64,000 nucleotides of DNA from Rhizophagus irregularis (Eukaryota), in contig NC_089430.1 of NCBI RefSeq assembly GCF_026210795.1, forward strand, positions 3,472,001-3,536,000, read 5' to 3'. The notes below the pieces were generated by a model, which saw nothing but the letters and a program-made list of their open reading frames with translations, was not told where the DNA came from and ran no database searches. The position numbers and the translations under genes were made by a program. Shown here in pieces: positions 1 to 20,541 of the stretch; the first letter of the stretch is position 1; each line of letters starts with the position of its first letter.

Positions 1-32
1 TAGACCAGTATGATACTACCGAATCTAAATCA

Positions 33-1139
33 TTGGAGGATGATAGAGAGACGGATTCTTTCTTAGATGAGGTGCATAGGAAGAAGGTTAGTAATGAGAT
101 AAGGGAGAGAAAGCGGAAAATAAAACTTCAGCATGAATTAACTACCCAAGACTCATCCTCAGTTACTTCTGTCTCATCCTGTCCACCCACTAGTTCGTGT
201 TCAGGGAAAAATGTTGAGAAACTATGTTTGAAGGAGAGAGACAAACAGAACACTCCGTCACATCAAAAAATCCTCTATAGGGAAAAAGTGGAGCGAGGTT
301 TAAGGCAGGAACTATCATCTTTTTGCAGTAAGGACAGCGATGGTAGGGTGTTTGACATTCAGATTCCCGAATTCTCCTTAGAAGCGATTCTAACAGGATC
401 TAGTAAAATTACAGCACAAACCATAGTCGAACTATTTAATGTAGCAATGAAGGTCAGACATAAGGAGATACTATGCTGGTATTGTTACTATAAAGCGTAC
501 GAGGATCGAATTAGGGATTTTAAATCTACGAATAAGATTGACGACCAATCGGCAAGGACATTGGTATACAGCGAAATCAAATCCCTTCTTCCAGACATTA
601 CTGACGTGAACTTGCGTAAAATCACTTCTAGAGCTAAAAAGGTTTATGTATTATTCGAGGGGATAGGAATAGATAAAATTCAAGCAGTTACTTATAGCGC
701 AAGTGCTATTTCAAGTTTGATAGAAATTCAGATCCAAGGCATTATAAGTTGTTTTCCCAAGACTTATAAGTCTTCTACGGATGATACAGATGAATGCCAA
801 AAAATGATCAGCGTGACAAATCGTCACGCGCACGTGACTGAATCTTCTGAGGTAAGCGCATCAATGATTTCATCAGTCACACCTCAAGCAAGTAGGACTC
901 ATGACCGCACCTATTTTCGCAACAAGATATTGGATCAATATCCTAATCTATATAGAGAATGTAGTAGTGAAAATTTCGATTATTATGGAATTACTGATGA
1001 GACATCATGCGGAGTCTCGAGAGAGACCATCTGCCCATTATGCAAATTAGGTCATAATGATGAAGAAATAGAAGGTAGGTATAAAGCCGGATCTTACTTT
1101 ATTAAGTGTGAACAGCATGAAATTGAGATAACTGCATAG
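33..1139 (+). CDS. Uncharacterised protein, possibly 5'-partial; helical domain plus C-terminal Cys/His motif
   Basis: 368-codon intronless ORF. Contains a WYCYYKAYEDR...ARTLVYSEIK...RAKKVYVLFEGIG block and a C-terminal CPLC..H...C..H motif. Confidence 0.6.
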   Translation: MEDDRETDSFLDEVHRKKVSNEIRERKRKIKLQHELTTQDSSSVTSVSSCPPTSSCSGKNVEKLCLKERDKQNTPSHQKILYREKVERGLRQELSSFCSKDSDGRVFDIQIPEFSLEAILTGSSKITAQTIVELFNVAMKVRHKEILCWYCYYKAYEDRIRDFKSTNKIDDQSARTLVYSEIKSLLPDITDVNLRKITSRAKKVYVLFEGIGIDKIQAVTYSASAISSLIEIQIQGIISCFPKTYKSSTDDTDECQKMISVTNRHAHVTESSEVSASMISSVTPQASRTHDRTYFRNKILDQYPNLYRECSSENFDYYGITDETSCGVSRETICPLCKLGHNDEEIEGRYKAGSYFIKCEQHEIEITA

Positions 1140-1314
1140 TCTTACCCCCTCAATCAAAGATTTCGGGGTGGGAGAAAAGTGATATATTTCTTACTTGCAG
1201 GCTCGCAGGCTCGCAGGCTCCGTATAACAGATAGGTTTTTTTTTCTCACCCTGCAGTTCGAAGAATAAAGGGGCGGGGATTTAAATTGATCTGTGATCAT
1301 AGAAAAAAGGAAAC

Positions 1315-1866
1315 ATGAGCGAATCCAATAAAATATTAACTCCCGAATACCTAGATTGGCATGCCAAATTAAGTGGGCTACCAAGCGTTTTGACAGATAA
1401 AATTCGCTTCAAATTTTACAAAAGATATAAAAAAGAAACTGGATGTGAGCCATGGCAATTATCAGAAGATCGCCTTCTCATAAATTCGAAACCAGAAAAC
1501 AAAGTATCCTATTTAACTTCTCCTGAGCAATGTGAAGAAAAAGGGCCCATCACTTTCGAAGCCAGACCCGATCCAAAATTAATTATTAAGTCCGTCTTAA
1601 AGCACTTCCCATACTTGAAATTCGGAAATAGTTTCAGAGGGATTGATAATTATGATTTTACATCACCTCAGCCGTGGAGCTCACCATGTCCTATTTGCGA
1701 TGGAAAACATGGGAATTATGGATTACATGGCTCATGGTACTGCGAAAATGGGAATCAGTTCCCTTATGATCCTGAATTAGCGAAGTTGTATTTCCAGGAT
1801 AAGTTGGAATATTGTCTTACCTGCAATACTTCAAGCAATAAACTAAAGTTCGCAATTGTACTGTAG
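1315..1866 (+). CDS. Uncharacterised protein with CPIC..H zinc-binding-like motif
   Basis: 183-aa ORF. Its C-terminal part (YPYL..D.YD...CPICDGKH) resembles the C-terminus of the upstream ORF (YPNL..DYY...CPLCKLGH). Confidence 0.55.
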   Translation: MSESNKILTPEYLDWHAKLSGLPSVLTDKIRFKFYKRYKKETGCEPWQLSEDRLLINSKPENKVSYLTSPEQCEEKGPITFEARPDPKLIIKSVLKHFPYLKFGNSFRGIDNYDFTSPQPWSSPCPICDGKHGNYGLHGSWYCENGNQFPYDPELAKLYFQDKLEYCLTCNTSSNKLKFAIVL

Positions 1867-2027
1867 CATAGGACAAAAACAGATCATGTGAAATCAATCA
1901 CCCGAAAAAATGTACTCATTGCCATGATAAATGCACTGCTGAAATAATAGGACTGTGCAAATTCCAAGGTAAATGAAATTTTGGTCATATGAGAATTTTT
2001 TTTTTATTATATTAATATTTATATATC

Positions 2028-2252
2028 ATGCCGAATCTCTTAACAAACAATCAGGATAGTACAGCTTATAAAGAGCTGGAAGGCGCTTTGCTAAGGCAGA
2101 ACTACTTTGAAAAATGGCATATATTTAGGGGATGGAAGCATGGATGTAAGGTTTGTGAGGAATGTGATCATCACTCACATCTGTATTGCAAAAGGTGTAA
2201 GAAGGTGGCGGAAGGAATTTATAAGCGATGTGAATGTCCTCAAGTAATTTGA
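2028..2252 (+). CDS. Small Cys/His-rich protein, putative zinc binder
   Basis: 74 aa with CKVC-EEC-DHHSH-CKRC-CEC; the ATG follows a T-run/AT-rich leader. Confidence 0.4.
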   Translation: MPNLLTNNQDSTAYKELEGALLRQNYFEKWHIFRGWKHGCKVCEECDHHSHLYCKRCKKVAEGIYKRCECPQVI

Positions 2253-4115
2253 TCAATAAAGTAATGGTGCAAATTTACTAGACATTTTATAATTTTTTCG
2301 CATGGAATGAGTGATAGGATTGTGTGAAGCAAAGTGCGTACTATTATTTGTTTGATCAAGTATATTGTAGCTTGATAAATAAATACGCAGTAATATTATA
2401 GTAATTATTACATGTATGATGTATCACAGGAACAAGTAATTGTGCATTCTCAAACTTTCTCGCACATTCTCAAAATTATGTATAGCCCCTTGATGATCTT
2501 TACATATGGATTATGGATAGCGTTAAATTCTTTATTGTTAGATTTAAGGAGAAGCCGTTGATCAGATTTTCATGATGTGTTCATATTAACGTAATTTTCC
2601 CCAAAAGCGTATTCCAAGATCGATCCTGCAAATTGTATAAAAAGGTGATGTCCTGGCTAGTGAATCCTTTTATCTGCCTCATGCAAGTAAAATAAAAATC
2701 AAGCAAAAAAATTCAAATCAATCAAGCTTACCATTATTAAAATCATTGATATTAACAATCAAACGAACTTGCATTTTCCACAAAGTCATAATAAAGTAAG
2801 TTAGTTTATTGCTTGGCTAGCTTCTTAAAACATGTCATCACAATGTTAATCGATTTTCCCGCCTCTATAGATGTTCCAAAATAAAACGGACATATTACTC
2901 TTCTTGTTATGTATCGGCATTTTGATCTTCGCCGAGAAAATCACTGACCATAATCACGCGTACAACTGGAGCAGTATCACAAAAATAAATCCCCGTGATG
3001 GGATATTATCTTATCTAATCAATTACATGTGCATCATCGACGCAGTAAAATTAAGCATCTTCACGTGCCGAATTCTTGATACTTGACGCAGTATATACTG
3101 ACGATAAAAAAATCGAATTACCTTTATTGTAATGTATTAAGCAACAAATTTCAGGCGGAATGGAATGTTATGAAAATGAATCGTAGTGGTGAGTATGAAT
3201 CGGAAATACGTCTGCATTGATTATTTTTTATATCTCATTGCTAATCTTCGAATTCTTTCTATAGAATCGAAATTACTTCCTCTCAGAAAACTTCTCTTGT
3301 GGGAAATATTATTTTACATAGTCTGTGCAGGTGGTAGTGATATAGATAGGCGTAGATATGGGTGGGATAATATATTTAGAAAATCTAGAATAGTAAAAGA
3401 GCGTGGGGTGAGAATCTTGCAGTTAGCTATATTGATAGAAATAAATTAGTTATATTTTTGAGAGCAAAGAAAAACTTGATGCTGGGACTCGCACTAAATG
3501 GCCTAGGATCCGCGTACTCCCTCCCTCTTTGATAGCATCATACATTTCGCTTGCTACCTCCACTTTTTTATAAAGGAATCGAAAAATAAATCATTGTTTA
3601 TGTAGTTCTTTCATATGTAAATATGTATATCTTTGAACTCCGAAATATAACATCAGTAAAATCCAATGATGCATAAAAAAAGTATACAAAATCAATTAAT
3701 CAAATGATGTCATCCTCATAAGATATATAATAATTAGTATTCAAAAAAAATGTTTCTTAAACTTCTTTCTTAAAATTTTAATCAATGTCTTCTTCTTTCA
3801 TTGATAAAGAAAGTTTTACCGATATCATATCTATCATTCTCGTGATTTTTATCGCGTTCGTGGTCTGTGTGATTATTAAGATATCTGAATTTACTATTTG
3901 GATTATTACTTATCTAAGGCTTTCTTTTTGTCGCTTTTAGTTCTTTCCTATTACTTTCGTTCTTCTTTTGATCGCTATTACGTCATACATTGGATATAAT
4001 ATTAGTAAGGGGATTACTTATATCTTCAAGTCATTGGCTTGTTCACTTGTGTAACGTAAAGTCGTTAAAAACGGATTTCTCGTATTAAAAATTTTCATAC
4101 TCTATTCCAATAACC

Positions 4116-5044
4116 ATGGCGAACATGTCTAAAGTTTATTGCGAGAAAATAGATCTTGAAAACATAGACCTCAAGAAGGTTTATACCTTTGAAGAGTTCG
4201 AGTATATAAACAACCAACTTAAGACTCGCACTATACAACTTAACGGAAAACCAGTTAACCTCTTCGAATACAAAAACGGAAAGTTAATCCCAATGCCTCA
4301 GACTCCATACGCAAGAGAAAAGGTTGTTGCCGAGATTGTAAGACAGTTAGGCAACTGGAACTTCGAAACCCATCAAAATGGAGGCGTTACCTCTTCGCAA
4401 GGTGGCTTTGATTTTAATGTCGGGGGACAGAGAACAATTCGAGCACCCGACGTTTCTTTCACTCCAAAACAAACAGACCGCGGTTTGAACGCACTACAAA
4501 ATTGGACCTTCCAAGGTCAACCCTTCACCCCAATATTTGTTGTTGAGGTTGATTTTATTGAAAGTGAAGCACAATTCCAAGTATTTGACGATAGATTCAG
4601 AAATGAAATTTTTGCACAGGGAACATCTGTGGAGTTAGGATTTCTAGTTAGCATCGGCCAAGATAATAACGGCCAACTGGCGGGAACTATCCATTCGTGG
4701 AGATGGTACGAAAATAGTAATGCTGTACGTCATTATGAACATGGATGGCGAAATATGGATACCAGGGTCGGCGGTCGAGAAATTCTTCCAGGCTTCGAAT
4801 TGAATGTTAGGATGATTGAAGAATCTATTTCGCAAGTATGTTGTGATGATTTACCATTGATTATTTTATTTTAATCTTATCACTTATTTATTTCATGAAA
4901 TGATTACAGCAAGATTCAGGTTCATCATCGTCGGATGATGATAATACTAGCTTTTCTTGTCCTAAATGTACGAAAACCTTTACTAATAATCACAGATTTA
5001 TGAAGCATTTTCAAATGGAACATGCACTTAAACGACGTACATGA
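4116..5044 (+). CDS. Uma2/DUF820 PD-(D/E)XK endonuclease-fold protein with C-terminal C2H2 zinc finger (exons 4116-4835, 4910-5044)
   Basis: Uma2-like motifs FEYKNGKLIPM, IRAPDVSF, PIFVVEV and ILPGFELN. GT-AG intron at 4836-4909. Exon 2 encodes CPKC...HFQMEH. Confidence 0.8.
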
Positions 5045-5649
5045 CGTACACAACAGATCTTAATGTTGCTAATTTTTTATGTGCAGTAATTTGATTATGT
5101 AATATTCATCTTGTAGAAATTTCGCATCATCTAACAACAATGCCATTTCTATTTTTCCATGTAATAAAAATAATAATAGTAGTTTTCACAAGCCATAGGC
5201 ATTATATAATTGCCCACTGATTTTTATTTTTCCGTAATGTGACTTATAATGCATATATATATTCGAATTTTTCCTTCTTTGCAATATACTGTATTAAATG
5301 CAGATCAATTAAGATCATATATATAGTACACACGTACACACACAATTCAACTACTGCGCCCAGCGGTCAGATTTTTCATTTTGGTGTATTAAAGTATAAA
5401 TAATAAAAAAAGGTTTGACCAGTGCCAGGGGAGCTAGGGTGATACCTGTGATACGATTACGTAATGCCATAAATCGAAATACCGCTGTAAATATAGCCAC
5501 TATATAAATCCCCGATATGCTTGTAATCGAATAAAAATGAATATGATATTTTATTATAATATACTTGCTATAAATTGCTATAAGTCTTTAAAACCGCTAT
5601 AAATTATCAAATTCACTATAAATTGCTACAAAGTCCCTATATCCGTAAA

Positions 5650-6819
5650 ATGGTTAAAACTAACTATTCTGGTTTAAATCCTGTAGTAGTGCAGGCGTTA
5701 AACAATCTGCAATATAGGTATAGTGGCGAAACACCAGAAATGTGGTGTTCTCGTGTTCGTTATCCTTTTAAGAAACTTCTTGAATATAACCCAAAATACT
5801 TTTCCAAGAATGGATTTATCCAAATGGTTGAAAGGGTATATATAGATGGGGAATTTAAAGCTGGGAGACGCTCATTTAATATTTATTGCACTGTATGTGA
5901 CTCCTTGGTGTTTATCCATGAAAATACTATTGAATGTGCAAATATTCACCTAAATGAGTGTATTGCTAAAACAGTCAAAAGGCGGATTGAATATTCTAAA
6001 CCTGTACAGAAAAATGTGAAAAAAAGAGGAGTGCCAAGCCGAAATAGTGTATTATCGCTTAGTTCTGACGAGATAGATGAGATTTATCGAACATATTGTT
6101 TTACATTAAGTAATTACTGGACTAAATATAGTTATCATTATTTACCTGAAGATAGGAAAAGGGTTGTAAATCATTTAATCGAAAGTGCAAAAGTTGTCCA
6201 ACGGGCTTGGAGGACTTTCAAGTTGAGACCTGAAACATGGGCGAAACGAGTTTGGAATATGGTGAGGAATGATGGTACTCCTGATGAGAAGAAGTTTCTA
6301 TCTCCTCGTGGTAAAAGAGATATTTATGATCCATATGTATGGTATATTGATCGAAAAATTCTAGCTAAAGATTTACCTGAATCTTTTCTGAATAATCTAT
6401 ATGATGGTCATATTCCACGCGAGTGGGCAGAAAAGAAGAGTGATCAGTTACATAATCGATTAGGTAATATAGCATATATAGTTGCTTTTATAGTATTACA
6501 TCAGCAAGGCTATAGAATCGTTACGTATGGTGATTGGTCTTATATGTTAAAGTGGCTATCGAATCCTGAATATTACCGTATTAATGAATATTATAACAAT
6601 GGCAACGTAAACTTTGTTAAAAGTTCAGAATATGCGCGTTATAGATGTAAAATAACAGGCAAACCATATCCATGTGATTCGCTAGAAATTGACTATTTTA
6701 AATCTGAATATGGTTTTACTATTGAGGGAAAGTTTAACATTATAGATTTCTCAGATTCAAATAATAATTGTGAATATGTGTGCCGAGTTTTTCGGGCCAT
6801 AGATTCTTTATCAAAATAA
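5650..6819 (+). CDS. Uncharacterised intronless protein with CxxC...H motif and IQ-like motif
   Basis: About 390-aa open frame with CTVC..C..H and AKVVQRAWRTF. Confidence 0.6.
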   Translation: MVKTNYSGLNPVVVQALNNLQYRYSGETPEMWCSRVRYPFKKLLEYNPKYFSKNGFIQMVERVYIDGEFKAGRRSFNIYCTVCDSLVFIHENTIECANIHLNECIAKTVKRRIEYSKPVQKNVKKRGVPSRNSVLSLSSDEIDEIYRTYCFTLSNYWTKYSYHYLPEDRKRVVNHLIESAKVVQRAWRTFKLRPETWAKRVWNMVRNDGTPDEKKFLSPRGKRDIYDPYVWYIDRKILAKDLPESFLNNLYDGHIPREWAEKKSDQLHNRLGNIAYIVAFIVLHQQGYRIVTYGDWSYMLKWLSNPEYYRINEYYNNGNVNFVKSSEYARYRCKITGKPYPCDSLEIDYFKSEYGFTIEGKFNIIDFSDSNNNCEYVCRVFRAIDSLSK

Positions 6820-7556
6820 TATAGTATTATATTTATGTATAATTATTAGCCAAAGACGCTTTACTTAATAATACAATAAATCATTTTTTTTACTTTCATT
6901 CGCTTACTCCACTACAATGTATGGGTGATCGCCTAGTGAAATGTATCACCTTCATAATTTATGTGAAATAAAAATTGTGATCTGCCTAATCTGGGTTAGA
7001 CCAGCCATGCGACAGAAAATAAACGTGTTTCTGATCCCGTTGAGTGGATATGATGTAATAAGTGATACTCTATGCTTGTGCGACGAAATAATTTTACACA
7101 CCCAAAAATATTTCGAATTTTTTCCCTAGCAACGTTTAGTGGAATAGCATTTATTTGTGAGTTTATTTCTCCAGAGCTACAGGCTATTTCTACTATATGG
7201 GGTTCACTAATTTCGACAGAAATACATTATATAACGTTGCCAGGTCTTAGTATTAAGCGGTCAGGCGAAAAAAAAAAGTTCGTATATGCATATTCCCCAA
7301 CGCCTTTGCAATGTTGAGATCTACAATGCACATTCCGCATGTCTTACTCTTAAACATAAAATTTTGGCGTAAAGTGCCTCGCATATTTCTTCTATCTCTC
7401 CAAACATGAATGTGAGTTAGAGAGGACGTGAATGGGAAATGCAAGACATTTAAAAAGGCAGTATGGCGAAAAGGTATTAAAATTTACCATATATTGTTTT
7501 TTTTACTTCGCCTAGCAAGCTTTTCACTAACAATTATCTTCTTATTTTATCTAAAC

Positions 7557-9456
7557 ATGGAAGAGTTCCTTTTAACCAGAGAACCCCTTGATATCGTCAG
7601 AATTTCTACGGCATTATTTGTACGAGTAGAGAAAGGTGAATGGACAGGCAACCTCGAAAAGGAGGTGGAGAACTTTGAAAATATTTTGCAAAAAGTTTTA
7701 GAGCGAGTCCCCTCGGAGGATGTTGAACGAAAAAAGAAGCTTCGAAATTTTGGTACCGGGAAAAAATTAGCTAAACGGGTAAGGCGATAAACTATTTTCA
7801 TGTATTTGAATATATGGATATTGTATTTACATACTTTTTTAGGTTTTCTAGTATAGTATAATCACTAGCGAAGAGACTGATGTCCGTTGTAATATTATTA
7901 CTTCCCACTCAGTAGTAACTAGTTTTATACTATATCTACATATCAAATATTTTGCCGGCACTTGAGACTTTATGAAAATGGAAACCTAATCTGATCCCGC
8001 GATGTAAAATGAAATTATTTTGTCAAACGAGTCTTGGAAACTAATTTTAAATATATTTTAGGTCACAACTGCATTCGAAGATCTATGTTCACTCTCAGAA
8101 ATGGAAGCGTTAGTAATCGATACAGAAGCCTGGTATGAAGATGCAAATACAAATTTACGATCTTTGAAGCGTGACGTTGGACGATGTATGACTGAGAGCG
8201 CTAGTTATGAGAAAACCATGTGGGAGAGAATAGAAACAGAACTTGAGGAAATAAATGTGGAGAATCTTGGATTCGATCATCCGATTTGTTCAGGTGTTCT
8301 AGATATCAAGTCAGAACCCTTTACAAATATGCCTACTTTGCTTCGATATTTTTAAGGAACCATTTCGAAAATATAAGTTAAAAGCGAATAATTACGATAT
8401 AATGGAAGCTTGTAAAGAATTTATCCAAAATGAAGAATCGAAAATTAACATAGACGAGGTTTTGGGTAATATTAATTATGGAGAATGGTTGGATAAGCCC
8501 GAAGAATTACAAGATCTAACAAAACGGATGTTAGAATCTATATAAGTCACTGGCGAGAAATTCTTGCCAAAATCTGTTTATATGATTTTTTACTTTGCTC
8601 ATTAACCAATAAATAATTATAGGCTCAAGGTTTGGAAATCGCCAAAATATGATGCATATATAAAGAAGGGGAAATCAATAAACGAAGGATCATATGTTTG
8701 TGAGGTGCTTGCGCCATTATTAAATATAGTGATGAGCGATTTACCAGGAAACCCGATAGCATGGGATATATGGTAGGCTTAGCTCAAAAAGTTTCATTAC
8801 TCCACTATCATATCTGCTATAATTAATGTTTTCTAAATTAAGGGGTGAAGAAGGGAGTTCAGCTAGTGCCATACGAAAAGGTTCTCGTAAAATTGCCCGA
8901 AGAGCCGATTATATGATGGTAGCCCAGTTCAGAAAAAATGCTGAACTTGAAATTGTTTATCTTGAGACCGGTAGACCTAATTCCAGTCAAGATAAGCGGG
9001 ATCGTGATCACAAAAAATTAATACGTTTTTCCAAAGATTCTATCGACACCACGAGGAACATAAAAAACCTTAAAAAGATATTTAACCAACCATCGAGGAG
9101 GCAGAATCTGACCATATTCACTATTAACATCGCAGGTACGAATAATTTACTTCTATTTTTTTATATATTCATAAATCATTTATATTCCGCTCGATCCATT
9201 TCTAGGCGATGTTATAGAACTTTATGCTATGCGAAAAGAATCAGGAATTTACAAGTACTGTTTAATAGAGGAGGCAACAATTCCGTTGCATATGACTTCC
9301 CCAAGTGCCGTATACCCGCTTATACATGCATTGATAACTCTGAGAACGGCCGTCGCATGTACGATTCACAAAATATTATATAGTTCTGACTCTGGGGATA
9401 GTGAGCATAGTTCTAGTGAAATGGTAGTAACGGTTACGACCCCCAAAAATTCATAG
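7557..9456 (+). pseudogene. Intron-containing restriction-endonuclease-fold (Crinkler/CR-REase-like) gene, disrupted
   Basis: Spliced fragments read ...YVCEVLAPLL..WDIW|GEEGSSASAIRK..RRADY..EIVYLETG..RDHKKL, a PD-(D/E)XK-like pattern. In-frame stop/frameshift near 8353. Confidence 0.55.
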
Positions 9457-9785
9457 AATAGAGATTTCATACATGTAATTTTTATTAAGTTATATTATTA
9501 ATAAAGCAGTGTATTAGATAATAAAAAAATTCTTGGCATTTTCCTCGAGAAACATCATTATGTCCCGGAAAATTTTCTTGGCAAAATTTCGGTGAACTCG
9601 GTTCGCCCAAAATCACTAACAATATAAAACTGTTAAGATCTTCTGGTGACCATTGATCACGTGATCTGAGCCTAAACCAATCCCTTACCAGATATGACGC
9701 AACCCGCGATATAGGCGTGTACCACTATAGTCTATAGATGAATTTTGCATGCAAACTTTTTTTGCGCAAACCTATATCTAATAAA

Positions 9786-10340
9786 ATGTTCCATTCTGAC
9801 TATAAACATATTATTGATAGACTACCTGAAAGTCTTGTCAAGAGAGCTTGCCAGAGACTCTTGCACCATTCTAAAGACCCTGTTCCATTAGAATCTATTT
9901 CCAAGAAGTCTGAACGAATTGAATCTTATTTGAGGCGCATATTAGAGGTTTATGAGAATTCGTTAAATAAGAAGAAACGTAAAACTATGACTCATGAAAT
10001 AAAAAATATTGCGCCCTCGAAGCTGGCCAGAATGTAATGTATCCCCAGCATTACCGACTATACATGTTGTAGATAATTGGTCCTAAACCAATGATATTAC
10101 TTGGCCAGAGGCACTAAAGCATGATTATGAAGAAGAGAATAATCGCCGGGTTATGAATGAGCTTAAAGTACTATCCCAGCACCTGATCGATTATAATAAA
10201 CGAACTTTTGAGAAATTTATGCATGACATAGAAAAGGAATATAGAGAGTGGATTACTGCAAATAAGAAAATGCACTATGAGATCAAAGATCTGAAGATGC
10301 AAGTGCTGGAGGCAGAAAAAGGAGCTGGCATCTATGAAGT
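9786..10340 (+). pseudogene. Disrupted coiled-coil ORF upstream of gag
   Basis: ORF fragments 9786-10037 and 10153-10340 are separated by a frameshift/stop; helical, charged composition. Confidence 0.45.
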
Positions 10341-10482
10341 CGAATTCTATTCATTAATAGACTTGGCCAGAGGATTTTTCCTTGTATTTCTGCAAAGTAA
10401 GATCCTGGTCAAGATTATGCGCTTTCTGAGGATCAATATAAATCAAAGGTTCTCCCATTCTCTTTTATAATCACAAAAAAGA

Positions 10483-13182
10483 ATGGCATTTCGGAGGCCC
10501 CATCCAAGGCAGAGAAGAACATGTGAAGAATATAAAGCTGAATCCTGAGGAGATAACTACCATCTTTGTAGTGAATTGCAAGCAGAAGTTGATAGTAACT
10601 GCCAAAATGAAAAGCAGATCAGGGAGCTAGTACGTGAATGTGTCCGTTGTGGCAAATCCAAACTCTTAATGGTGAGATAGAACGTCTTGAGAATGCTTCG
10701 AAAGAGGAGATAGTAGAGCTAAAATCCGAAATTTCCAGCCTAAAAAAGCAACTATATCAAGCTAAGAAGGATATTCGTGATAATGAAAAACATATTTCTA
10801 GTATAGAGAGTCTGTTAGTAGATTCTGAGGAGCAGGTAGAGAAATTGCGATGCCAGATCAGAACCATCTCATCACGAAAAAATTTGCCAGAACGAGGGAA
10901 TTCTCCAGACTTGTATAATCCTAATATTAACTTAGAAATGGCTAAGGTTGCTTGTCTAAACCTCTTCAAAATCCTACGATTAGTTTCGTCAAAATTTTAC
11001 TATAGATTTATTATAGTTTCGGCAGAGTTTCGGCAGTTTCGGCATTTATAATAAGTTTCGGCAGTTTCGCCTTTCTCCAAAGTTTCGCCAGTTTTTTAAT
11101 ATAACTTTAATATAGTTTCGGCAGAATTTCGCTTTTCGGCGAAACGCCATCTTGCCTAAACCCCTAGGTTTCGGCAAGCAACCTTAGAAATGGCTACCAT
11201 CACGGAGCTAGCAAATGCTATAGATGGTTATCTGAATAATACAACAATAGGTAGAGAAATCTTAGCTGATCAAATAAAAAGGGCGACAAGGCAGATTCGC
11301 CGAAAAGAGAATAATTGGCATCAGGATTTAGTCCGTGAGCAACGAAGGCGATATGATGCAGAGGCTGAGCGTGATAATGAAATTATACGAAGGCAAAATG
11401 CTGAAGGAGTGGAACAAATGGTTATTGCTGACCTTTATCAGTTGCGGACCAATGCTCAAAATCAAGTAAATAGAATGTTAGACAATATAACAGGAAAGCG
11501 AACCCGTATTGGTATATTGCTACAGGAAAAATTTGCCTTACAATTGCTGTATCAGCGAAATGCCCATCACTTACAGCGAAGTAGAGGGAATATAGGTCTG
11601 TTAGAATTTAATCGTGACAGGCTCTATGAGCGATACGAGAAATGGAAAAATAAGACCCAAGCAGAGCGACAGAATAATTTAAATTTGTAAGGACAAATTT
11701 TGGCGCTTCAGAATAATCCACCTAATCAAGTAAACATGGCAGGAATATCTCATCCATATTTTGACTGGGATGATAGTATCCCAGACTTTCTTGCGCAACT
11801 TAGACTAGACTTGCAAAATCGGGGAATAGATCCAGCAGGTGCAGGGGGCAATGGAAGAGCTCAGGCACTAGGACATTTAAGAGCATGTATGAGGGAAGAA
11901 CCTTAGAATGGTTTGATGAAGAGATTACTACAAAGACAAATTGGGAATTAACTAATCTGACTGATGGTACAGGACAAGCCAATTTGGTAGCTGTAAACGG
12001 GCGTACAGCTATTCAGATCGGTGCTGATGGATTAAATGAGGCACTCGGACAACCTGGAAATGCAATAGTAAAATTAAGAGCTGTAGAAGGTCCATGGGAC
12101 GAGGACTGGCGCATAGCAGGAGGTCGTCCTACTAATCTTCCTGTTAATTTACCGAATGCTGGTAATGGAACTACAGTAGTTGTAGCTGGTATTCGATTTG
12201 GTCAAGCCGTATGGTGGCTAAAAACTCATTTTCCTACAGTAGAAGAGGAACTTCGGGATTTGATGTATGGAACAATCAGAAAGGGAGATACGACTATAGA
12301 TGAATTATATAGAAAAATATTACGAATAGGTAGACGAGCCAACTATAGACCTGAAGAATTACGTAGAAAGTTCTTAGATGCTTTACCACTTTTATGGCTT
12401 GAAAAAGCTGAAGATATTGGTGAACATTTGCCATTAGATGAATTAGCTAAAAAGCTTTATGAGATAGAATTACGCCGAATAGCTAGACATAAAAGAGATA
12501 GAATATCTGATCCGCTAGTATCTAATCGAACATCTTGGCAAATATATGAACCTTCACCTGTTTCAGCCTCACAACAGCATGGAATATCTTTAGAAGATAT
12601 GCAAAAAGCAATCCAGAATGCATTAGCACAGCAAAAAACTGAATACCAGTCTTTATTAGAAAAACAAAAAGCCGATTTCCAATCACAAATGGCCCAGCAA
12701 ACTAAAAAGATACCTCCACCAGTTCCTCCTAAAAATATGGAACAGCTTCTTTGATACATATGAAAGCGCTAATCCTTTCCCCGATACACTTACTAGGGAA
12801 GAAATAATGAGAGTGGTCGCAAAAGCTTATGGGCCACCTCCTAAACCGCAAAAGCCAGAAAAGTTGCAATCATCTAGAATCGATAGATTAGAGTCAAAAA
12901 TAGATGAAATTGGTCAAAGAATGACATAAGTTTGGTAGGATATCACTTAATGATCAATCTCGAAAGCCTTTTTATTGCAGTAATTGCGGACAGGAAGGGC
13001 ATAAGAAAAACAATTGCCCAAAGTTAAATCCTGTAGCTAAATCCAATTTTACTCAATGTTACTATCCTCAACTTCCATCTACACAGCCCCAATATACGCC
13101 TCCAGATTCAGATAATGAGGAAAATGGTTATGACAAAGTAGAAAATAGGTGGTATTATGCACCGGAAAAAAAAAACAGGTAA
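10483..13182 (+). pseudogene. Gag-like polyprotein: N-terminal coiled coil, Ty3/gypsy-type capsid-like region, CCHC zinc knuckle; disrupted by a MITE, stops and frameshifts
   Basis: FDWDDSIPDFLAQL..LRACM(RG)RTLEWFD and TIRKGDTTIDELYRKILRIGRRANY..LRRKFLDAL resemble retrotransposon Gag. CSNCGQEGHKKNNC (CX2CX4HX4C) at 12976-13017. TAA at 13180-13182. Start position approximate. Confidence 0.7.
10943..11186. mobile_element. hAT-type MITE (244 bp) inserted in gag
   Basis: TIR TAAGGTTGCTTG/CAAGCAACCTTA; perfect 8-bp TSD GAAATGGC at 10935-10942 and 11187-11194. Confidence 0.93.
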
Positions 13183-13841
13183 ATGATAAGTTGGCCAGTG
13201 ATACTAATGCAATCTCACCCCTAGAATCTAGCCAACCTGAAACGTACGATCAGCTATTGTCTAAGCTCTCACCACTGATACGAAAAATGTGCTTGTCTCG
13301 AAAGGCTCAGGAGGAGGAATCGAAAGAATCAGATGAGTGGTTGTCATCTTTACAATATCTGAATGCTAATATAAATGACTTAACTATTTCTGAATCTTTT
13401 TTAGATCCCGGCAGTGAGTTCGGTGGTATAAATGACCCAGCAATTAAGGTGCTTGGATGGAAGGCTGATAAACCATCTAATTTTGCCATAAAGGGCAATT
13501 CTAAGCATATCACCGATTCATTAGGATGGTATACAGACGTGCCAGTTACTTTGAAGGATAAAGAAGATAAGACGATCACCATTATTGGAAATTTTGTTCG
13601 TATTGATAATGGTGAAACAGAACCAATGCTATTTTTTGGTATGTCAAACATTCAGAAGGTTCAAGGCGTCCCCGAGCCGAATAAAAATCAGTTTCGCATA
13701 AAGTTACATGGAAAGGCATATATTATCCCAACCTTTAGCAAGGCTCCGGTAGTCAAAGATCCGCCAAAAAAAGATCAGGACCAAGTATCTACCGATTCTT
13801 CTAGTCTAACTGGTGAGAAGAACTTAAAAAAAAATGCATAA
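13149..13841 (+). CDS. Retropepsin-like aspartic protease, in the -1 frame relative to gag
   Basis: Active-site-like FLDPGSEFGGI, flap-like IKGNSKH..SLGW and C-terminal MLFFGM, lying directly after the zinc knuckle. Confidence 0.7.
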   Translation: MVLCTGKKKQVNDKLASDTNAISPLESSQPETYDQLLSKLSPLIRKMCLSRKAQEEESKESDEWLSSLQYLNANINDLTISESFLDPGSEFGGINDPAIKVLGWKADKPSNFAIKGNSKHITDSLGWYTDVPVTLKDKEDKTITIIGNFVRIDNGETEPMLFFGMSNIQKVQGVPEPNKNQFRIKLHGKAYIIPTFSKAPVVKDPPKKDQDQVSTDSSSLTGEKNLKKNA

Positions 13842-13975
13842 ATTGTATGAGTTATGAAGATATGGCAATTCGTATGAAAGAGCTCGAAAAGGCATTATTT
13901 TCTAGCATTCAATCGAATTTGGAAATCATAGAATACTATAATAGTTCGCGCAGTCGGATTGAATAGGACGAATAA

Positions 13976-14305
13976 TTATTTGGAAATAAGAGGACGACCT
14001 GATGCTTTAATTTTTTCTAAAGTATTATCAGTTCTCTTATACAAATCCAAGACATCTTCAGAGGAGTCAGTAGGCGAAATAATTTCTTTTTTTGTTCCAG
14101 GTATTGATTGACCCCCTTGGGATCGTTTCTTTCCTCCAGTCTTTTTTGCCTTACTACCTGCACTTTCTTCTGAAACCGGATCAGTAGATTTGCTAATTTC
14201 AGCATCTTGTATCTTGTTTTCTAGTGCTGTAAAGGCAGTATTAAATTTATTTTGAAAATCTCTTTCAGCTTGGTGCTCTTCATTCTGTTTATTTATAACA
14301 TTCAT
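13976..14305 (-). CDS. Small basic/helical protein of unknown function
   Basis: 109-aa ORF with a lysine-rich NLS-like segment, KAKKTGGKKRS. Confidence 0.45.
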   Translation of the reverse strand: MNVINKQNEEHQAERDFQNKFNTAFTALENKIQDAEISKSTDPVSEESAGSKAKKTGGKKRSQGGQSIPGTKKEIISPTDSSEDVLDLYKRTDNTLEKIKASGRPLISK

Positions 14306-14370
14306 ACTTGCTGAAAGAAAAATACGGATTAGTGCTCATCATTTAATTGTTCTTCCCTCTACCTGCTCCT

Positions 14371-14604
14371 TCATCGGTCGTGTTGTTGGAGTAATGTGAC
14401 TGCTAAATCATTCCATTGAATGCTATTAAACTCTTGTCCTCTCCAAATTTGATATAAGCGACTATTCGATATATTATATTTTTTACTTAGCTGAGCTAAA
14501 GGTTTAGACTTCATATCACGATATTGCATGATATCTTTGTAATCTGCGGAGGATAAGTATCTAGCCCTGGAACTAATATGTGTTTTAAGCGGGGGTGTAA
14601 TCAT
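14371..14604 (-). CDS. Small helix-turn-helix DNA-binding protein
   Basis: PLAQLSKKYNISNSRLYQIWRG fits the HTH pattern. Confidence 0.6.
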   Translation of the reverse strand: MITPPLKTHISSRARYLSSADYKDIMQYRDMKSKPLAQLSKKYNISNSRLYQIWRGQEFNSIQWNDLAVTLLQQHDR

Positions 14605-14664
14605 ATTAGTAACTAATCTCTAAAGATTTTTTTTTCACTATAAATAAAAAATCCACAAAAAATA

Positions 14665-14870
14665 TTGATACTATGGTAATATCAGTAATACAATAGTATC
14701 AGTACTATGCTAATATCGGTAGTATTGATAGTATTAGTATCAGTTATATGGTAGTATCAGTACTATGCTAGTGTCGATAATATAGTAGTATCGATAGTAT
14801 CGGTAGTATTAGTATCAGTTATATGGTAGTATCAGTACTATGCTAATATTGGTAATATGCTAGTATCCAT
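14665..14870. repeat. Degenerate short tandem repeats (AGTATC/AGTACTATGCTA units) in a divergent intergenic region
   Basis: CAGTACTATGCTA occurs three times and TATTAGTATCAGTTATATGGTAGTATCAGTACTATGCTA twice. Confidence 0.8.
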
Positions 14871-14950
14871 AAAAAATAAAGTGCTTACTGCGCAGTCTCA
14901 AAATTTTGCTCATATTTTTTTAGTATACTAATGATTAAGCCGAAAAAAAT

Positions 14951-15912
14951 ATGCCCAATGTACATACTTTAAGAGATATCGAAAATAGAGGGGTGGTTGA
15001 GGGTCCACTAAGTAAACACACCTCCTCGGGTAATCGGCTTGGTAGCATCCGTGAATCAGAACTTGAGAAAGCATTGCGCGGTAACATCAAAACTGCTTCT
15101 GATATTGCTAATGATTATAAAGACCTGCAGGACATATATTTAGAGCGAGTGAAGGATTTTAATCGTATCTGTTCAGGCTTTAACAATAAGTTTAGTCGGC
15201 TGAATACAGCTAATACTGAGCTCAAAGCCAAATATTCTGCTGAAATCAAATTGCTCAAATCCAATATTAAAATACTAAAGAGAAAGGCAACTTTGGCCCA
15301 GAAAGCTTCGTCTGCTGACAAGGTCCAGATTCTTTCTCTTAGGTTAAAATACGTGAATTGGAAGGTAAGTTGGAGGACATAGATCTAGAGCGTACGTATT
15401 ATGATTTGGATGTAATGGGAGGAGTGATAGAAAAGCCAGTAGAAATGCCAAAGTTACCAGATTGGCTTCATGATAATTTAAGAAGTATTGTCTGCGAGCT
15501 CGGGCTCAAAGATAAAGTAATGGAACTTGATAAAAAACTTGCTAAGGAAGATATATTGGAGGTGTTGCAAAAAGTAATATTAGAAAAAGACCACCACCTT
15601 CAAGATGCCAATGCTCGCCTAGAAAAGGCATTATCAGAGAAAGATTCCCTCCTTCATGAGGCCAATACTCATATAAAAAAACACTTAGCCAGTTTTGAAA
15701 AAAAAACCAGTCCTGATTCTTTTGAGACCCTGCAGGTAATTGGGGGAACTGATATCTCCAATACTACTTTAGCATTACCCCACTTGCACTCTATTACTGG
15801 ACCAGAAGCAGGTGAAACTAATTCCTTCTTTTTTCAGTATGCAATCATCTTCGTAATAGTATTACTAATCATATGCATTTTATGGTGTGTATTCTCTCGT
15901 AGAAATTCTTAA
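14951..15912 (+). pseudogene. Long coiled-coil protein with C-terminal transmembrane helix; one frameshift near 15340
   Basis: ORFs 14951-15382 and 15358-15912 overlap and are heptad-rich. The protein ends FFFQYAIIFVIVLLIICILWCVFSRRNS. Confidence 0.6.
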
Positions 15913-16016
15913 CTACAAATGAAGAAAAAAATATTTCGAACTATAAAATACCGCTTAAATAGAAATCAGAGTTATGCCCAATCCGATACGCGGAAGGACG
16001 AACCGGGACTCCTCCT

Positions 16017-16814
16017 ATGAAACTTCGTCTTTTGGATATGGATGAGGTCACTAAACATGAATCATCCCGAAATATTGGACATCCAGCAATGACATGGCCT
16101 TTCAGCATGTTGGTCACTGGGAGAAGTGGTTCAGGTAAGACTAATTTACTTGCGAATCTTGTTCTTAATGATAAGGATGAATATGTGCAAAGAGGGAAGA
16201 AAGGTGGGTCTCGCTACATCAAATGTGATGATCTAATTATTTGTGGGTATCATCCTGATGAACCGAAGTGGGCATATGTGAGATACGTATATAATATGAT
16301 TTTGAAAGACCCAAGAGCGCCTTACTATGAGAATATTAGTTTCAGTTATATTCCACCCGAAAGAATTCCTAGTACAAGAACATTCTCACCCGAAAGAAGT
16401 AAATTATTTATTTTTGAGGATCTGTGCCTCGCTCCAGATCATATACAAAATCGTATTGGTCAGTTTTTTGGGAATGGGCATCACCGAAATATTTCATGTA
16501 TATATATTACGCAAAAGTATCATAAAGTCGATACATTCAAACGTGAAAACTCGACTCATTTAGTATTATTTAACTCTGGTAGCAGTATCCAAGACGTGTC
16601 TAAGATTGTTGGACGATATATTGATGATGTAAAGGGTGCATCTATGGTTATTAATAGTTACCTTCGAAAAGGCGAGTTTGTTGTATTTGATCTCACTAGG
16701 CCAGAAGATGATCCTCTTGCAATCCCCCTAAGGTTTGACACTCCACTGAACTTACAAAAGGAGATAGAGGCTAGGCAGAAGCGCAAGAAAAAGAGTGCCT
16801 CAGCTAATGAGTAG
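16017..16814 (+). CDS. A32-like (FtsK-HerA superfamily) viral DNA-packaging ATPase
   Basis: Walker A MLVTGRSGSGKTN, Walker B LFIFEDL, and the A32-type motif G(H)HRNISCIYITQKY. Confidence 0.85.
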   Translation: MKLRLLDMDEVTKHESSRNIGHPAMTWPFSMLVTGRSGSGKTNLLANLVLNDKDEYVQRGKKGGSRYIKCDDLIICGYHPDEPKWAYVRYVYNMILKDPRAPYYENISFSYIPPERIPSTRTFSPERSKLFIFEDLCLAPDHIQNRIGQFFGNGHHRNISCIYITQKYHKVDTFKRENSTHLVLFNSGSSIQDVSKIVGRYIDDVKGASMVINSYLRKGEFVVFDLTRPEDDPLAIPLRFDTPLNLQKEIEARQKRKKKSASANE

Positions 16815-16864
16815 AATCTAACTTCATAGATACTAACTTTTTTTCGTAATTATAAAAAATTGGA

Positions 16865-17997
16865 ATGGGGGAACCAGTTATTTATATCGATCCTCAAAAA
16901 GCTCATGATTTAGACTGGCATCTTGCTTTGCAAAAAATATATTATCGTCCTGAAGGTCTTTATCAAAATGTTAAGAGATTATGGGATGCTTGTAAAAAAG
17001 CCGGCTACAGCTTTCCATTTATTGATATAAAAAAATGGCTTGAGGGCCAAGCAATGTATCAAATTTTTCGTCCTTCGCCAAAGCATATACCTTATACCAG
17101 TTACTCTAAAATCACAAAGCCAAATACTGTGCACCAATGTGATTTAATCGAAATACCATATGATGAAGATGTGGATACAAATTTACTAGATGATGGTCCA
17201 ATATATTACTATGTACTATTGGTTATAGACTGCGCGACTAGATATAAAGATTTCGTTTTTTTAACATCAAAGAGCAGTGAGGAAGTTGCGGAAGCATTTA
17301 AGAGTATATATAATAATCCCGATAAGCCTCTCAACTGGCCTCGAAAATTGCAATGTGATAAGGGCACTGAGTTTATGGGATACGTAACTTTATTAATGGA
17401 TGAACGTAGGCGTTGAGATCCGAAGAATTATAGCACGTTTCAGGCATACAAGCTTGGCTATGGTCGACCGTTATGCTGGATTATTCGAATTAAGAGTTTT
17501 TAAAAATCAGTATTCAATAGAGTTTCTCCTGCCTACTGGTAAGCGCTGTAGAGAATGTGAGCGGTTTGCAAGAAAAATTGTTGATAATATGAATGATAGC
17601 CCAAACTCGATTGATTGGGATGAGTCCTAATGACGCCACAAAACTTGAGCAGATATATTCCAAACCATCAGTAAAATATAATCGCCCAATAGGTGTTGAT
17701 GAACCACAACTACCAAAGGGTACTACTATCCGATTTTTGCTCGCTCCTGGAGAGTGGGAAAACGATCCTTTCGAACGACGCAGAATAACAGATCCGATAT
17801 GGTCTCCCAGCCTGCATAAGATTCGGAAAATTGTTGTTGGAAAGAATCCTCCAATGCCTATTTTATATTATTTAGATGAATCAGGACCCCAACGCCCTTT
17901 CGTGAGAGAACAATTGATGCATATTAAGGAAGAGCCCATGTTACCTCCTAGGTGGGTATTGGGAGATAACCGAATGCGTACAAGGCGCTCCTTATAA
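16865..17997 (+). pseudogene. Polinton/Maverick-type retroviral-like (rve) integrase with two frameshifts (~17410, ~17605)
   Basis: LQKIYY..G..., IKKWL..Q, HQCDL, YVLLVIDCATRY, PRKLQCDKGTEF, N..MN...TRLIGMSP, and a C-terminal DPIWS...FVREQL segment. Confidence 0.85.
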
Positions 17998-18462
17998 AAG
18001 TTTCTAAGTCTACTACACAGTAAGGGATTGTAATAAGGATTACTCCTTCCCGATAGCATAACGCTTTCTTTTTCCAATCACGCCAGATTTGTGCGTCTAG
18101 ATTCATCTGACCTTGTGGGTGAAAAAAGGGACGATTTGGTAATGTTGATTGCCACTATATTCAAAGGCCAAGCCTAACTCTTCATTGTATCCATCTAGAT
18201 GTAATCCCTCCAAGAATTTAGGCTTTCGGGGTGGAAATTTTTTATGTAATAAATCCTCAAATATATACCGGCATGTTCTTTTTGGTATATTAGGACAAAT
18301 ATTGCACCATCTATAATTCTGTTTCATATTTTTATATGGCGCCTCCCATTGATGGCCTTTTTTACATGCCCATAAATATGTATTAGAACTAACTTTAGCT
18401 AAGCATCTTCCTTCACGCTTTTGGGCATATGCCAAAGCTTTAGTGTTAATATCATCTTGCAT
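17960..18462 (-). pseudogene. Zinc-ribbon + Vsr/PD-(D/E)XK nuclease of the type found in large DNA viruses; frameshift near 18120
   Basis: WACKKGHQW...WCNIC, then LHLDGYNEELGLAFEYSGNQHY, continuing in another frame as RDWKKKALCYREGVILITIPY. End position approximate. Confidence 0.7.
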
Positions 18463-18489
18463 TTTATAGGTGACAATAATAATATCACG

Positions 18490-19185
18490 TACAGAAATTT
18501 GCGGTAGTGATCATTAGCTCTGGACTAGTTTGGTCAGAAGAATCGATCTGGATATATGCAAATCCAGGTGCAAGTTTGAAAGTAAAATTAAACTTGGCTA
18601 CTACTATTGCATAAGTAAAAAAATAAATATCACCAATATTCTTAGCAGGAAGTGGCAATTTCGGCTAAGAGTACTTGACAATACAGCTCAACAATCTTGT
18701 CTATATATTCGCTCTTTTTATGTATTATTGATATTATCAAGTAGATCGATATCTTTTAACAATTTTTTCGTTTGTTTATAAAGATTTTGCCATTGTACAT
18801 GAAATTTGTTTCGTAAGACAGAAGACTTAATAAGACAGGGAAGAATACTTGTAAGATTATTTATATGGGATTTGATTACTGCATGAACATTTGCAATTTC
18901 TTCTCCTGCTGTAATCCAATCATAACGCGGAGTATAGAGAACTGTATAAATATGGGTTATTTCTTGTTCACTACAGTCTAGCCGATATTTGATAAAATCA
19001 AGATCTTCACGAAATTCCCTTTCTTTTTGCTTTAAAATAACTCAAAATGCTTCAGAATTCCATTGATAATTCACAATAAGACAGGAATATAGTATATCCT
19101 TAATCTTGAGATTACTAAAAATTAATTCAAGCAGTTCAGAACAAATAAATGGGCTAGACCCAGCATTTTTTTGCGCAAGAAGCAT
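18490..19185 (-). pseudogene. F-box protein pseudogene (absent from the ORF track)
   Basis: From ATG 19185 the frame reads MLLAQKNAGSSPFICSELLELIFSNLKIKDILYSCLIVNYQWNSEAF*, an F-box pattern, and continues past in-frame stops. End position approximate. Confidence 0.6.
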
Positions 19186-19577
19186 GGTGTATATGCAAGA
19201 AAGCAGTATAAAATAACAGAGAAACTAGCAAAGTTCAAAATAAAAATTCTATATAATTTTGAGCGAATATGCTTACTAGCGCGGGCAAAATACTGGATCA
19301 GTAGTAGTACCAAAAGTAATCAATATAATAATGCCTAAAAGTAATCGATGTAGTAGTACTCCAAAGTATCCCAGAGTAGAAACTATACAGGAACAAGAGC
19401 TAGAAGGCGAAAACAAGCAAGTTTATGGAATACCCACTCAAGCAGAATTATATATAGGAAAGAAAAGAGAAATTTCACTTGAGTGGCCTACCACCGATAG
19501 GCAGGAAAGAGACCGGAAAGGCAGAAAGGTTCAGGAGAATACACGAAAAAAGATATGAAAGCGATATAGCCTGAACC

Positions 19578-19852
19578 AATTCGACACTTCGCACAGAAAC
19601 CTCACACAGCAATCAGAAAGGGCATATAAAGGGCGGGATTGCAAGAATGGGCACAAATTCGGCACTTCGTGCCTCATCCTCGGCAATCAAAAGGGTTATG
19701 GAAGGCAGGATTGCACATCTAGGTCACCAATTCGGCACTTCGTGCTTTCATCCCCTAACTTAATCAAAAAAGTGAGGGAATGGATTGTGAAATGTCTTCG
19801 GCAAATAGATGGATTGCAAATTCGGCATTTTGTGCCTCATCCGGCAATCAAG
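19578..19852 (+). repeat. Four degenerate direct repeats, AATTCGGCACTTCGTGCCTCATCC
   Basis: Copies start at 19578, 19656, 19729 and 19819 (spacing 78/73/90 bp); GGATTG also recurs in the intervals. Confidence 0.8.
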
Positions 19853-20541
19853 AAATGGCAATTGAGAGGGAAGCAACTATGTGAGGGTGTTCCGGCACCA
19901 GAACAGTATCACGTGACTGGCACAGTAAGGCGCAGTATAGATTCGCTTAATTTTGCTTAGCACTATAATCCATATTTTTTTCCAAAACTTTGAGACGCAA
20001 TAACTCGGCATCCAGGCATCCAATTCATGCGATCTTAGCATCATTAGAAAGCTCTCAACGTCCTCTTTCAAATGACCACAAAACCGCACGAAGCTAATCA
20101 CAGGAAGCCAAGATATTCCACCCTAAAGATCAGCCAGAAATTATGCCATAGTGCCGGCCAAAATCTGATCCGCAAATTAACTGCGCCACCCGATGATTTT
20201 TTTACACCATTTCAGCAACTTAAAAGGCCAGCGAATGGGCCACACCCTCGACCTCAAATATGGCAACCAAAAGGGTCATAGAGTGGAAAACCCAACTTTA
20301 CTCCTATACAATTGTTAAAAGGCTTCAAAATGGAAAAACAAACCTCCGCCCTGTTTAGCAACCAAACAGTCACAGACCAGTGAAAACAGATGGGTAGCAA
20401 TAAAGCATCAGAAGGGGCATAGACACGTAAAAATAAGTAAGTAGGTATTAATATCTATAAGTAGGCATCACTATGGTGTAAGTAGATAGATCAAGTATAA
20501 GATCACTATAATTATAGCGATGCCTACTTGATCTATCTACT

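Follow-up and report, generated by a model that had tools for sequence, protein, structure and literature searches.

A decayed gag–protease, packaging ATPase and integrase cassette in Rhizophagus irregularis represents a repeated, Polinton-like element family

We analysed a 64,000-nucleotide stretch of the Rhizophagus irregularis genome (NC_089430.1, positions 3,472,001 to 3,536,000; hereafter the window, with positions counted from its first letter). It holds, in one cassette, a decayed gag, a retropepsin gene, an A32 ATPase and an rve integrase, each where a first-pass annotation made from the sequence had placed it. The parts and their order are present as annotated, and Pfam backs zf-CCHC, Pox_A32 and, just under its cut-off, rve. 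We interpret it as a degraded member of an element family, repeated in arbuscular mycorrhizal fungi and probably related to Polintons, the conserved core of which comprises gag-pro, a coiled-coil/transmembrane (coil-TM) gene, the A32 ATPase and the rve integrase, without a reverse transcriptase (RT). This copy is broken: gag contains stops, frameshifts and a miniature inverted-repeat transposable element (MITE), and the coil-TM gene, the integrase and a nuclease-like open reading frame (ORF) are frameshifted. Several of these breaks (those at 15340, 15953, 17408 and 18472) are missing from contigs of four DNA runs and are thus peculiar to the window copy or its assembly. For comparison, a metagenome scan with the ATPase yielded 65 loci (designated L), 168 kb in total with a median of about 2 kb.

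The gag gene (10483..13182, forward strand) encodes an N-terminal coiled coil, a helical region, a capsid (CA) domain and a CCHC knuckle, and has intact homologs of 718–813 aa (P0001, P0007 and L003). A coiled-coil ORF at 10483-10941 and an ORF at 11190-11690, at first read as separate, both turned out to be the N-terminal part of Gag, which is one 773-aa ORF in L003. The CA domain (11736..12500, forward) consists of an N-terminal domain with a long insertion and a C-terminal domain (CTD), with a frameshift near 11900. We modelled it on an intact stand-in, P0140 (which shares 87% and 71% identity with the two pieces in the window), using a 64-row alignment, and obtained a model with a pLDDT of 87. 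Foldseek returned no match at E ≤ 0.001 (best 0.034), its best rows being the PEG10, Copia and MLV capsids. In a comparison with 48,161 chains, rows 1–36 were all retroviral, retrotransposon or Gag-derived CA, including PEG10 CA-CTD (Z 10.1, rmsd 2.8, 85 aligned), MLV CA, aligned across both of its domains (Z 9.4, rmsd 5.8, 170 residues), and Copia CA (Z 9.2); the first unrelated row had Z 4.8. For a helical protein, Z scores of this size are moderate, and it is the uniformity of the match list that carries the argument. Atlas likewise ranked Retrotrans_gag clusters first (0.92). The intact homolog is thus predicted to fold as a two-domain retroviral capsid, in line with the capsid proposed in the first-pass annotation, and no fold result spoke against that proposal. 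The CCHC zinc knuckle of the nucleocapsid (12973..13023, forward) is above the Pfam cut-off (PF00098 zf-CCHC, E 4.7e-05). In the ORFs of the window itself, Pfam recognised no capsid and no protease; both were identified by folding.

The retropepsin gene, pro (13149..13841, forward), is open in the -1 frame, with its catalytic Asp at 13404, and ends in a stop with no RT after it. Its motif, D-P-G, is atypical, the homologs having D-T/S-A/C/G. A low-confidence model of the window protease (pLDDT 56) matched the retroviral-protease-like domain of Ddi1 (E 2.9e-04) and the FIV protease, and the homologs P0224 and P0247 pass Pfam Asp_protease_2; the protein is accordingly modelled as a retropepsin fold. 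Sequence searches of the PDB with the protease and with the integrase found nothing. In the window, in L003 and in the divergent L049, the end of gag falls on an A-run and pro is in the -1 frame relative to it; in the window this predicted slippery site is an A-run ending in C (13166..13176, forward). A second A-run leads into a helical stub of about 45 aa in the next -1 frame, at the place of pol (13826..13966, forward). Stubs of 45–55 aa in this position follow pro in the window, L001, L003, L008 and L025, and those of the window and L025 are clearly alike despite proteases that are 40% identical. From these sequences, -1 frameshifting is predicted at both gag/pro and pro/stub. Among long Gag homologs without a protease, 15/32 have KK near the stop, compared with 13/120 ATPases.

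Downstream, the A32/FtsK-HerA packaging ATPase (16017..16814, forward) is open, with intact Walker A and B motifs, and lies above the Pfam cut-off (PF04665 Pox_A32, E 4.3e-10); a PDB search with its profile gave P-loop noise only. In the alignment, His replaces the family's conserved Arg in the G-R-H motif of the window copy. The ATPase is preceded by the coil-TM gene (14951..15912, forward), which encodes a coiled-coil protein with a C-terminal hydrophobic segment and is frameshifted near 15340; open ORFs of 317–441 aa occupy this position in L001, L002, L003, L005, L007, L008, L013, L015, L019, L027 and L039. A programmed frameshift from coil-TM into the ATPase, suggested by the in-frame L025, was rejected: the ATPase lies in the +1 frame in L003, L009 and L021, and L003 has a stop just before it. 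The rve (DDE) integrase (16865..17997, forward) is in three pieces, the N-terminal of which scores 29.9 bits against a Pfam cut-off of 32.6 (E 6.8e-07). Its third catalytic position is Asp in the window and Glu in L008, L017 and L058, in all of which the integrase is open with D-D-E. By eye only, it resembles the Polinton-1_GI integrase row (INT-1_GI) in the part of the PMC3671162 supplement that shows it.

The association of gag-pro with the ATPase could be assessed in the 13 loci that have at least 1.9 kb before the ATPase. Gag and/or pro lies beside the ATPase in eight of these (the five without are taken up below), so the case in which other copies lack gag-pro was not what we found. L003 has an intact run of orfAB (a conserved helical ORF), gag, pro, the antisense gene, coil-TM and ATPase; L001 has pro and L008 a pro tail, each followed by the ATPase and integrase; and L025 has gag-pro in frame, with a protease 40% and an ATPase 70% identical to those of the window. 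In L049, which has a 43%-identical ATPase, a 724-aa gag and pro are encoded on the other strand, and gag and the integrase start head to head. The gag 5' end in L053-55 is cut by a repeat, and these three copies, 98–99% alike, count as one. Annotated genomes point the same way: in R. irregularis, the accession numbers of a Gag (CAB4418762) and an ATPase (CAB4418758) differ by four, and each protein lies on a contig of length 204,094. The gene models P0046 (R. irregularis), P0008 (R. diaphanus), P0070 and P0017 join neighbouring cassette genes by splicing, the first two connecting gag-pro to the ATPase or its lead-in. The integrase adjoins the ATPase in 19/65 loci.

Identity to the window falls together for ATPase and protease (97/92% in L003, 70/40% in L025 and 43/26% in L049), and in a quick ATPase tree (59 rows; ATPase matches with <190 aa after Walker A left out) the copies linked to gag-pro are spread over five separate branches. 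The link is therefore old, family-wide and native to the ATPase–integrase element. Directly upstream of gag lies an inverted relic of the integrase 5' end (10387..10480, reverse; 78% identical over 97 nt to 16840-16936), which fits descent from a head-to-head gag/integrase layout of the L049 type. These observations bear on the idea that a deleted LTR retrotransposon recently landed in a Polinton remnant and that the chimera was amplified passively. The window copy is indeed decayed, with a MITE inside gag, and nested insertions are common in these genomes. However, the same linkage occurs with ATPases 43–97% identical and in another gene order, gag and pro are under purifying selection, no LTR or duplication surrounds gag-pro, and the integrase relic lies upstream of gag. 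L025 and L049 already largely refute this scenario, which we consider very improbable.

The cassette genes are under purifying selection, with a dN/dS of 0.12–0.31 in 11/12 pairs covering gag, pro, ATPase, integrase and orfA. The capsids fall into two classes, one including the window, P0007 and P0017 and the other L003, L025 and L049, with 16–20% identity between them. CA identity does not track the ATPase: the window and L003 have different CA classes and ATPases that are 97% identical, and capsid domains must therefore have been exchanged between cassettes. Such swapping is expected under conflict and speaks for a rival view in which the element is a capsid-less Polinton or DNA transposon and gag-pro is long-retained, selected cargo that does something other than package the element. 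It could, for instance, supply a dominant-negative capsid acting against LTR retrotransposons or competing elements, and the ATPase would then serve in DNA handling or be a leftover. The fold matches include restriction factors derived from Gag, Ty1 p22 among them, and one amplified subfamily has the substituted ATPase motif. Yet the whole Gag–nucleocapsid–protease layout, two slippery sites and an active-site Asp have been retained across large divergences, restriction factors usually consist of CA fragments, and most copies either show purifying selection on the ATPase and coil-TM gene or keep them open. We regard the cargo view, the main rival, as doubtful, while giving it appreciable weight.

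Neither RT nor LTRs were found. Six-frame searches of the window and the 65 loci with three regular-expression motifs revealed no RT or DNA polymerase B (PolB) catalytic motif; 28/28 long Gag homologs scanned lacked an RT domain; and the Pfam column of 18 Gag homologs of 554–2000 aa listed no RT. In the window, L001, L003, L008 and L025, pro runs into a stop and the short stub, with no RT or RNase H after it. No LTRs surround gag-pro in the window or L003, and in the window no direct repeat of >26 nt connects the DNA before gag with that after pro or after the cassette. The first-pass statements that no RT follows the protease and that no LTR pair encloses gag-pro thus hold, the former in every copy seen and the latter in the window and L003, where gag-pro is bounded by neither LTRs nor a target duplication. 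The element is not an LTR retrotransposon. It might instead be a large non-autonomous retroelement, in which Gag packages the element RNA, RT is borrowed from Ty3/Gypsy and the stub is what remains of pol. In its favour, gag, pro and a third -1 frame are arranged like the double-frameshift genes of beta- and deltaretroviruses, and a CCHC knuckle binds RNA; the lack of LTRs in both the window and L003 counts against this view. Gypsy elements are reported as abundant and expressed in R. irregularis in the relevant passages of 10.1101/2021.03.30.436303. Against borrowed RT also stand genes on both strands, a variable gene order, introns in the repeated unit, a unit length of at least 15 kb and an ATPase left unexplained. 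Genes on both strands and GT-AG introns would fit DNA rather than RNA transposition, and we judge the retroelement view unlikely.

Nor did we detect the usual structural genes of Polintons: in the scanned ORFs of the window and the incomplete loci, Pfam and PHROGs gave no double jelly-roll major capsid protein (MCP), penton or cysteine protease. This raises the question of whether the loci are fragments of an ordinary Polinton-like virus whose jelly-roll capsid and PolB lie elsewhere in the genome, gag-pro being an extra gene. The loci are short, and a zinc-finger ORF with a by-eye likeness to the N-terminal portion of Polinton PolB follows the integrase (L004, L008 and L029) or the ATPase (L048). 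In addition, an adintovirus-like PolB has been reported in Rhizophagus, which is named as its host in the consulted part of PMC8502044. By contrast, none of the 28 ORFs of at least 300 aa in the loci (most assigned by similarity and Pfam), and none in 20 kb of the window, looks like a capsid. Two studies, to the extent of their sections on these elements, record no MCP for Glomus Polintons: PMC4028283 (Table S1) lists them without MCP, penton or cysteine protease, one having an ATPase, and PMC7805220 found none in G. intraradices Polintons in 2021. An ordinary Polinton with a hidden capsid seems to us quite unlikely.

The C2H2 zinc-finger ORF just mentioned is antisense and lies at L008:4002-5150, L004:2573-3942, L029:2014-2469 and L048:1119-1748. 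Judged by eye, the likeness to the N-terminal region of Polinton PolB lies in its C-terminal part, and the ORF stops without a polymerase domain.

What is repeated extends beyond the cassette. Contig cover was high and unbroken from 5400, where testing began, to ~20400 in 4/4 DNA runs; the first-pass view of a tight cassette as the element was accordingly right about the parts and too narrow about the extent. In run X2, cassette contigs reached a depth of ~1300 and rare variants 7–14, depth not being equal to copy number. Homologs were confined to Glomeromycotina wherever an organism was named: all 16 of the 18 Gag matches with an organism name, and every organism-bearing entry among the 120 listed of 151 ATPase matches. 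They come from Rhizophagus, Glomus, Diversispora, Cetraspora, Acaulospora and Gigaspora. Scans of IMG/VR with the ATPase, Gag and the ATPase alignment returned no relative, nor did a scan of prokaryote genomes. The more distant A32 ATPases P0130-P0138 and P0116-P0123 (35–43% identical, some from R. irregularis) form separate groups and may belong to PolB-bearing Polintons.

The element is Polinton-like in its integrase and ATPase and retroelement-like in its shell genes. We propose that it likely moves as DNA through the integrase and likely uses retropepsin-matured Gag as its particle protein in place of a jelly-roll capsid and cysteine protease, a reading to which we assign a probability of about 0.5. 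In this model, the rve integrase would move the element as DNA; Gag would be made in excess, with Gag-Pro produced by -1 frameshifting and a second -1 shift adding the short stub where pol once lay; the protease would cleave Gag; and the ATPase, perhaps held by the neighbouring coil-TM protein, would load or hold element DNA in the particle. Replication would depend on PolB or a helicase supplied by other copies or the host, and primase-helicase homologs, a possible source of replicase, are described as abundant in R. irregularis in the part of PMC11296320 that treats them. More tentatively, it is possible that a Polinton-derived lineage of fungal DNA viruses or transposons swapped its jelly-roll capsid for Gag-protease, kept the ATPase and loads double-stranded DNA (dsDNA) into a retrovirus-type shell without reverse transcription.

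Several observations weigh against the proposed DNA-filled Gag particle. Gag shells as a rule assemble together with RNA and lack a portal, and we know of no way for an A32 motor to fill one. Motors of the A32 family are known from jelly-roll virions (PMC4028283). The Arg-to-His change in the ATPase is common to the deepest contigs of runs X1 and X2, and a subfamily may therefore have spread without a working ATPase; between the window and L003, the ATPase dN/dS is 1.07, on about 1% change. Gag-pro is missing from 5/13 testable loci, of which L040, L051 and L063 are ATPase or coil fragments and L062 is barely long enough, while L015, in which a different ORF occupies the position of the pro tail, may be a true exception. 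In 8 of the 65 loci, the nuclease rather than the integrase directly follows the ATPase. The fold downstream of the gag/pro slippery site does not exceed shuffled sequences (z -0.93), and A-runs are common in the AT-rich DNA of the window. Neither the window nor the 168 kb of short loci showed a PolB or a helicase, and a search for longer forms of the L008 zinc-finger ORF, which adjoins the integrase, found no fusion of its domain to PolB among proteins of 652–2000 aa, in itself weak evidence. The loci being short, a jelly-roll gene could lie elsewhere in full elements. Finally, the ends of the element were not found, with no terminal inverted repeat (TIR) pair within window positions 1-22000 and the left end falling outside the window.

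Other features accompany the core genes. Upstream of gag, orfAB (9786..10470, forward) is in two pieces in the window and is a single 197-aa ORF directly 5' of gag in L003; it is fused to Gag in the R. clarus gene model P0017, has homologs near the ATPase in L020, L053-55 and L056, and shows a dN/dS of 0.22 against L003. Between pro and coil-TM lies an antisense helix-turn-helix (HTH) gene (13976..14619, reverse) with a weak HTH_28 match (Pfam, E 0.03). The two small antisense ORFs annotated here, one with an HTH, are probably one broken gene, as a single antisense ORF of 148–193 aa occupies this position in L001 (173 aa), L008, L015, L019 and L025; the HTH itself persists as that weak match. 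A tandem repeat (14661..14871, unstranded; 75-nt unit, 2.7 copies) separates the divergent HTH and coil-TM genes. Beyond the integrase, a zinc-ribbon and nuclease-like ORF (17948..18462, reverse) is in two pieces; its homologs lie near the ATPase in 12/65 loci, and that of L053 matches phage homing-endonuclease families (E 1e-18). In L031:744-2006, L021, L022, L050, L064 and L065, nuclease homologs carry up to five or more treble-clef zinc fingers (DUF4379); homologs of this type stand directly 3' of the ATPase and behave like a mobile homing endonuclease.

A set of accessory genes in the region 1..9456 (forward) is probably part of the same repeated unit: ORFs at <1-1140, 1303-1866 and 5584-6819, a Uma2 nuclease at 4089-4874 and an intron-bearing gene at 8823-9456. 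L051 has homologs of window 263-1148 and 1278-1852 beside an ATPase fragment. The ORFs at window <1-1140, L051:1500-2282 and L055:8379-8729 are members of a multi-copy orphan gene family that recur beside the ATPase, which suggests that some mycorrhizal orphan gene expansions are cargo of these elements. A downstream accessory region with an F-box remnant (18506..19589, reverse) is 77% identical over 1094 nt to sequence directly after the ATPase in L046.

The MITE in gag (10942..11187, unstranded; 246 bp) has short terminal inverted repeats and a 6-bp target duplication, 6 bp being the length of Polinton-type target duplications. A second copy at 21081-21326 is 95% identical and also has a 6-bp duplication, and a partial copy lies at 31332-31476. 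MITE depth was very high in 4/4 runs, and the MITE is absent from L003. Its 6-bp duplications raise the possibility of mobilisation by an rve integrase. We weighed a 60-nt hairpin (20482-20541) as a candidate right end of the element and did not accept it, as it has no partner in the window or the 65 loci. It is more perfect in contigs of runs X1 and X2 and is followed by an AT-rich palindromic repeat (20542-20930); it may be an element end or a separate repeat. Rfam had no match in window 9000-21500. Farther along are other transposon remnants (21581-25743, 28944-30886, 37678-42441 and 48063-51178), whose motifs suggest a MULE-like element with 117-nt TIRs, one of Pogo/Tigger type and two further decayed elements. 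Host genes, presumably an Aurora-like kinase exon, a cyclopropane-fatty-acid-synthase-like methyltransferase and an RRM/SR protein, lie at 36364-36756, 58173-59204 and 62191-64000.

Capsid type and motor are normally paired, A32 ATPases with jelly-roll capsids and Gag with RT, and this family breaks the pairing. If the proposed particle is real, it would be a chimera of two virus realms at the level of the virion and would account for the failure to detect a capsid gene in mycorrhizal Polintons. It would thereby offer a testable answer to the missing capsid of Glomus Polintons, a gap stated in the corresponding section of PMC7805220, and intact copies such as L003 make a yeast expression test feasible. 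Some of the unclassified repeats and multi-copy orphan genes in mycorrhizal genomes may likewise be due to this family; for these genomes, the relevant passages of 10.1101/2021.03.30.436303 report 24% unclassified repeats and a recent Maverick expansion.

With Ty3/Gypsy and Ty1/Copia elements and retroviruses the family shares the CA fold, CCHC knuckle, retropepsin and predicted -1 frameshift; it differs in lacking RT, RNase H and LTRs, in its separate Polinton-type integrase and in its ATPase. Caulimoviruses place dsDNA in a Gag-like shell with an aspartic protease, but their DNA is made by RT inside the capsid and they have no integrase or packaging ATPase; a caulimovirus coat cluster was a low-ranked Atlas match (0.88). 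Polintons/Mavericks, adintoviruses and Tlr elements share the rve integrase and A32/FtsK ATPase, a length of 15–25 kb and genes on both strands. According to the sections of PMC4028283 that describe them, they encode a double jelly-roll MCP, a penton, PolB (a helicase in Tlr) and mostly a cysteine protease, where the window family has Gag and an aspartic protease. Among them, the Glomus/Rhizophagus Polintons (Polinton-1_GI, P_Gi1.1 and P_Gi1.2) come from the same host group and, in the supplementary row available, have an integrase alike by eye (INT-1_GI). P_Gi1.2 is also listed with an A32 ATPase (PMC4028283, as far as its entry goes), and the Glomus/Rhizophagus A32 genes group with Maverick-Polinton ATPases in the accessible part of 10.64898/2026.06.19.733378. 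Compared by description, the passages on Glomus Polintons do not mention gag or retropepsin, whereas the window family has both and no PolB was found in it. The accessible text of PMC5294986, PMC7017919, PMC10640383 and PMC6431247 has nothing on Gag in such elements. The literature searched, with most subscription papers (including the first Polinton/Maverick descriptions) outside it, contained no description of the window family. The first-pass claim that no family with this gene set has been described therefore stands as regards a family description, but not entirely: the Fig. 5 legend of Starrett et al. 2021 (PMC8502044) lists, among MELD viruses and related elements, an unnamed element with Matrix, Capsid, NC and Pro similar to retroviral Gag and retropepsin. 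By the title of that legend this element bears PolB, whereas none was found in the window family, the comparison being with the legend text. The combination of Gag/retropepsin with a Polinton-like element has thus probably been glimpsed once, in a figure, and the window family is apparently a partly glimpsed, uncharacterised variant of Polinton-like elements.

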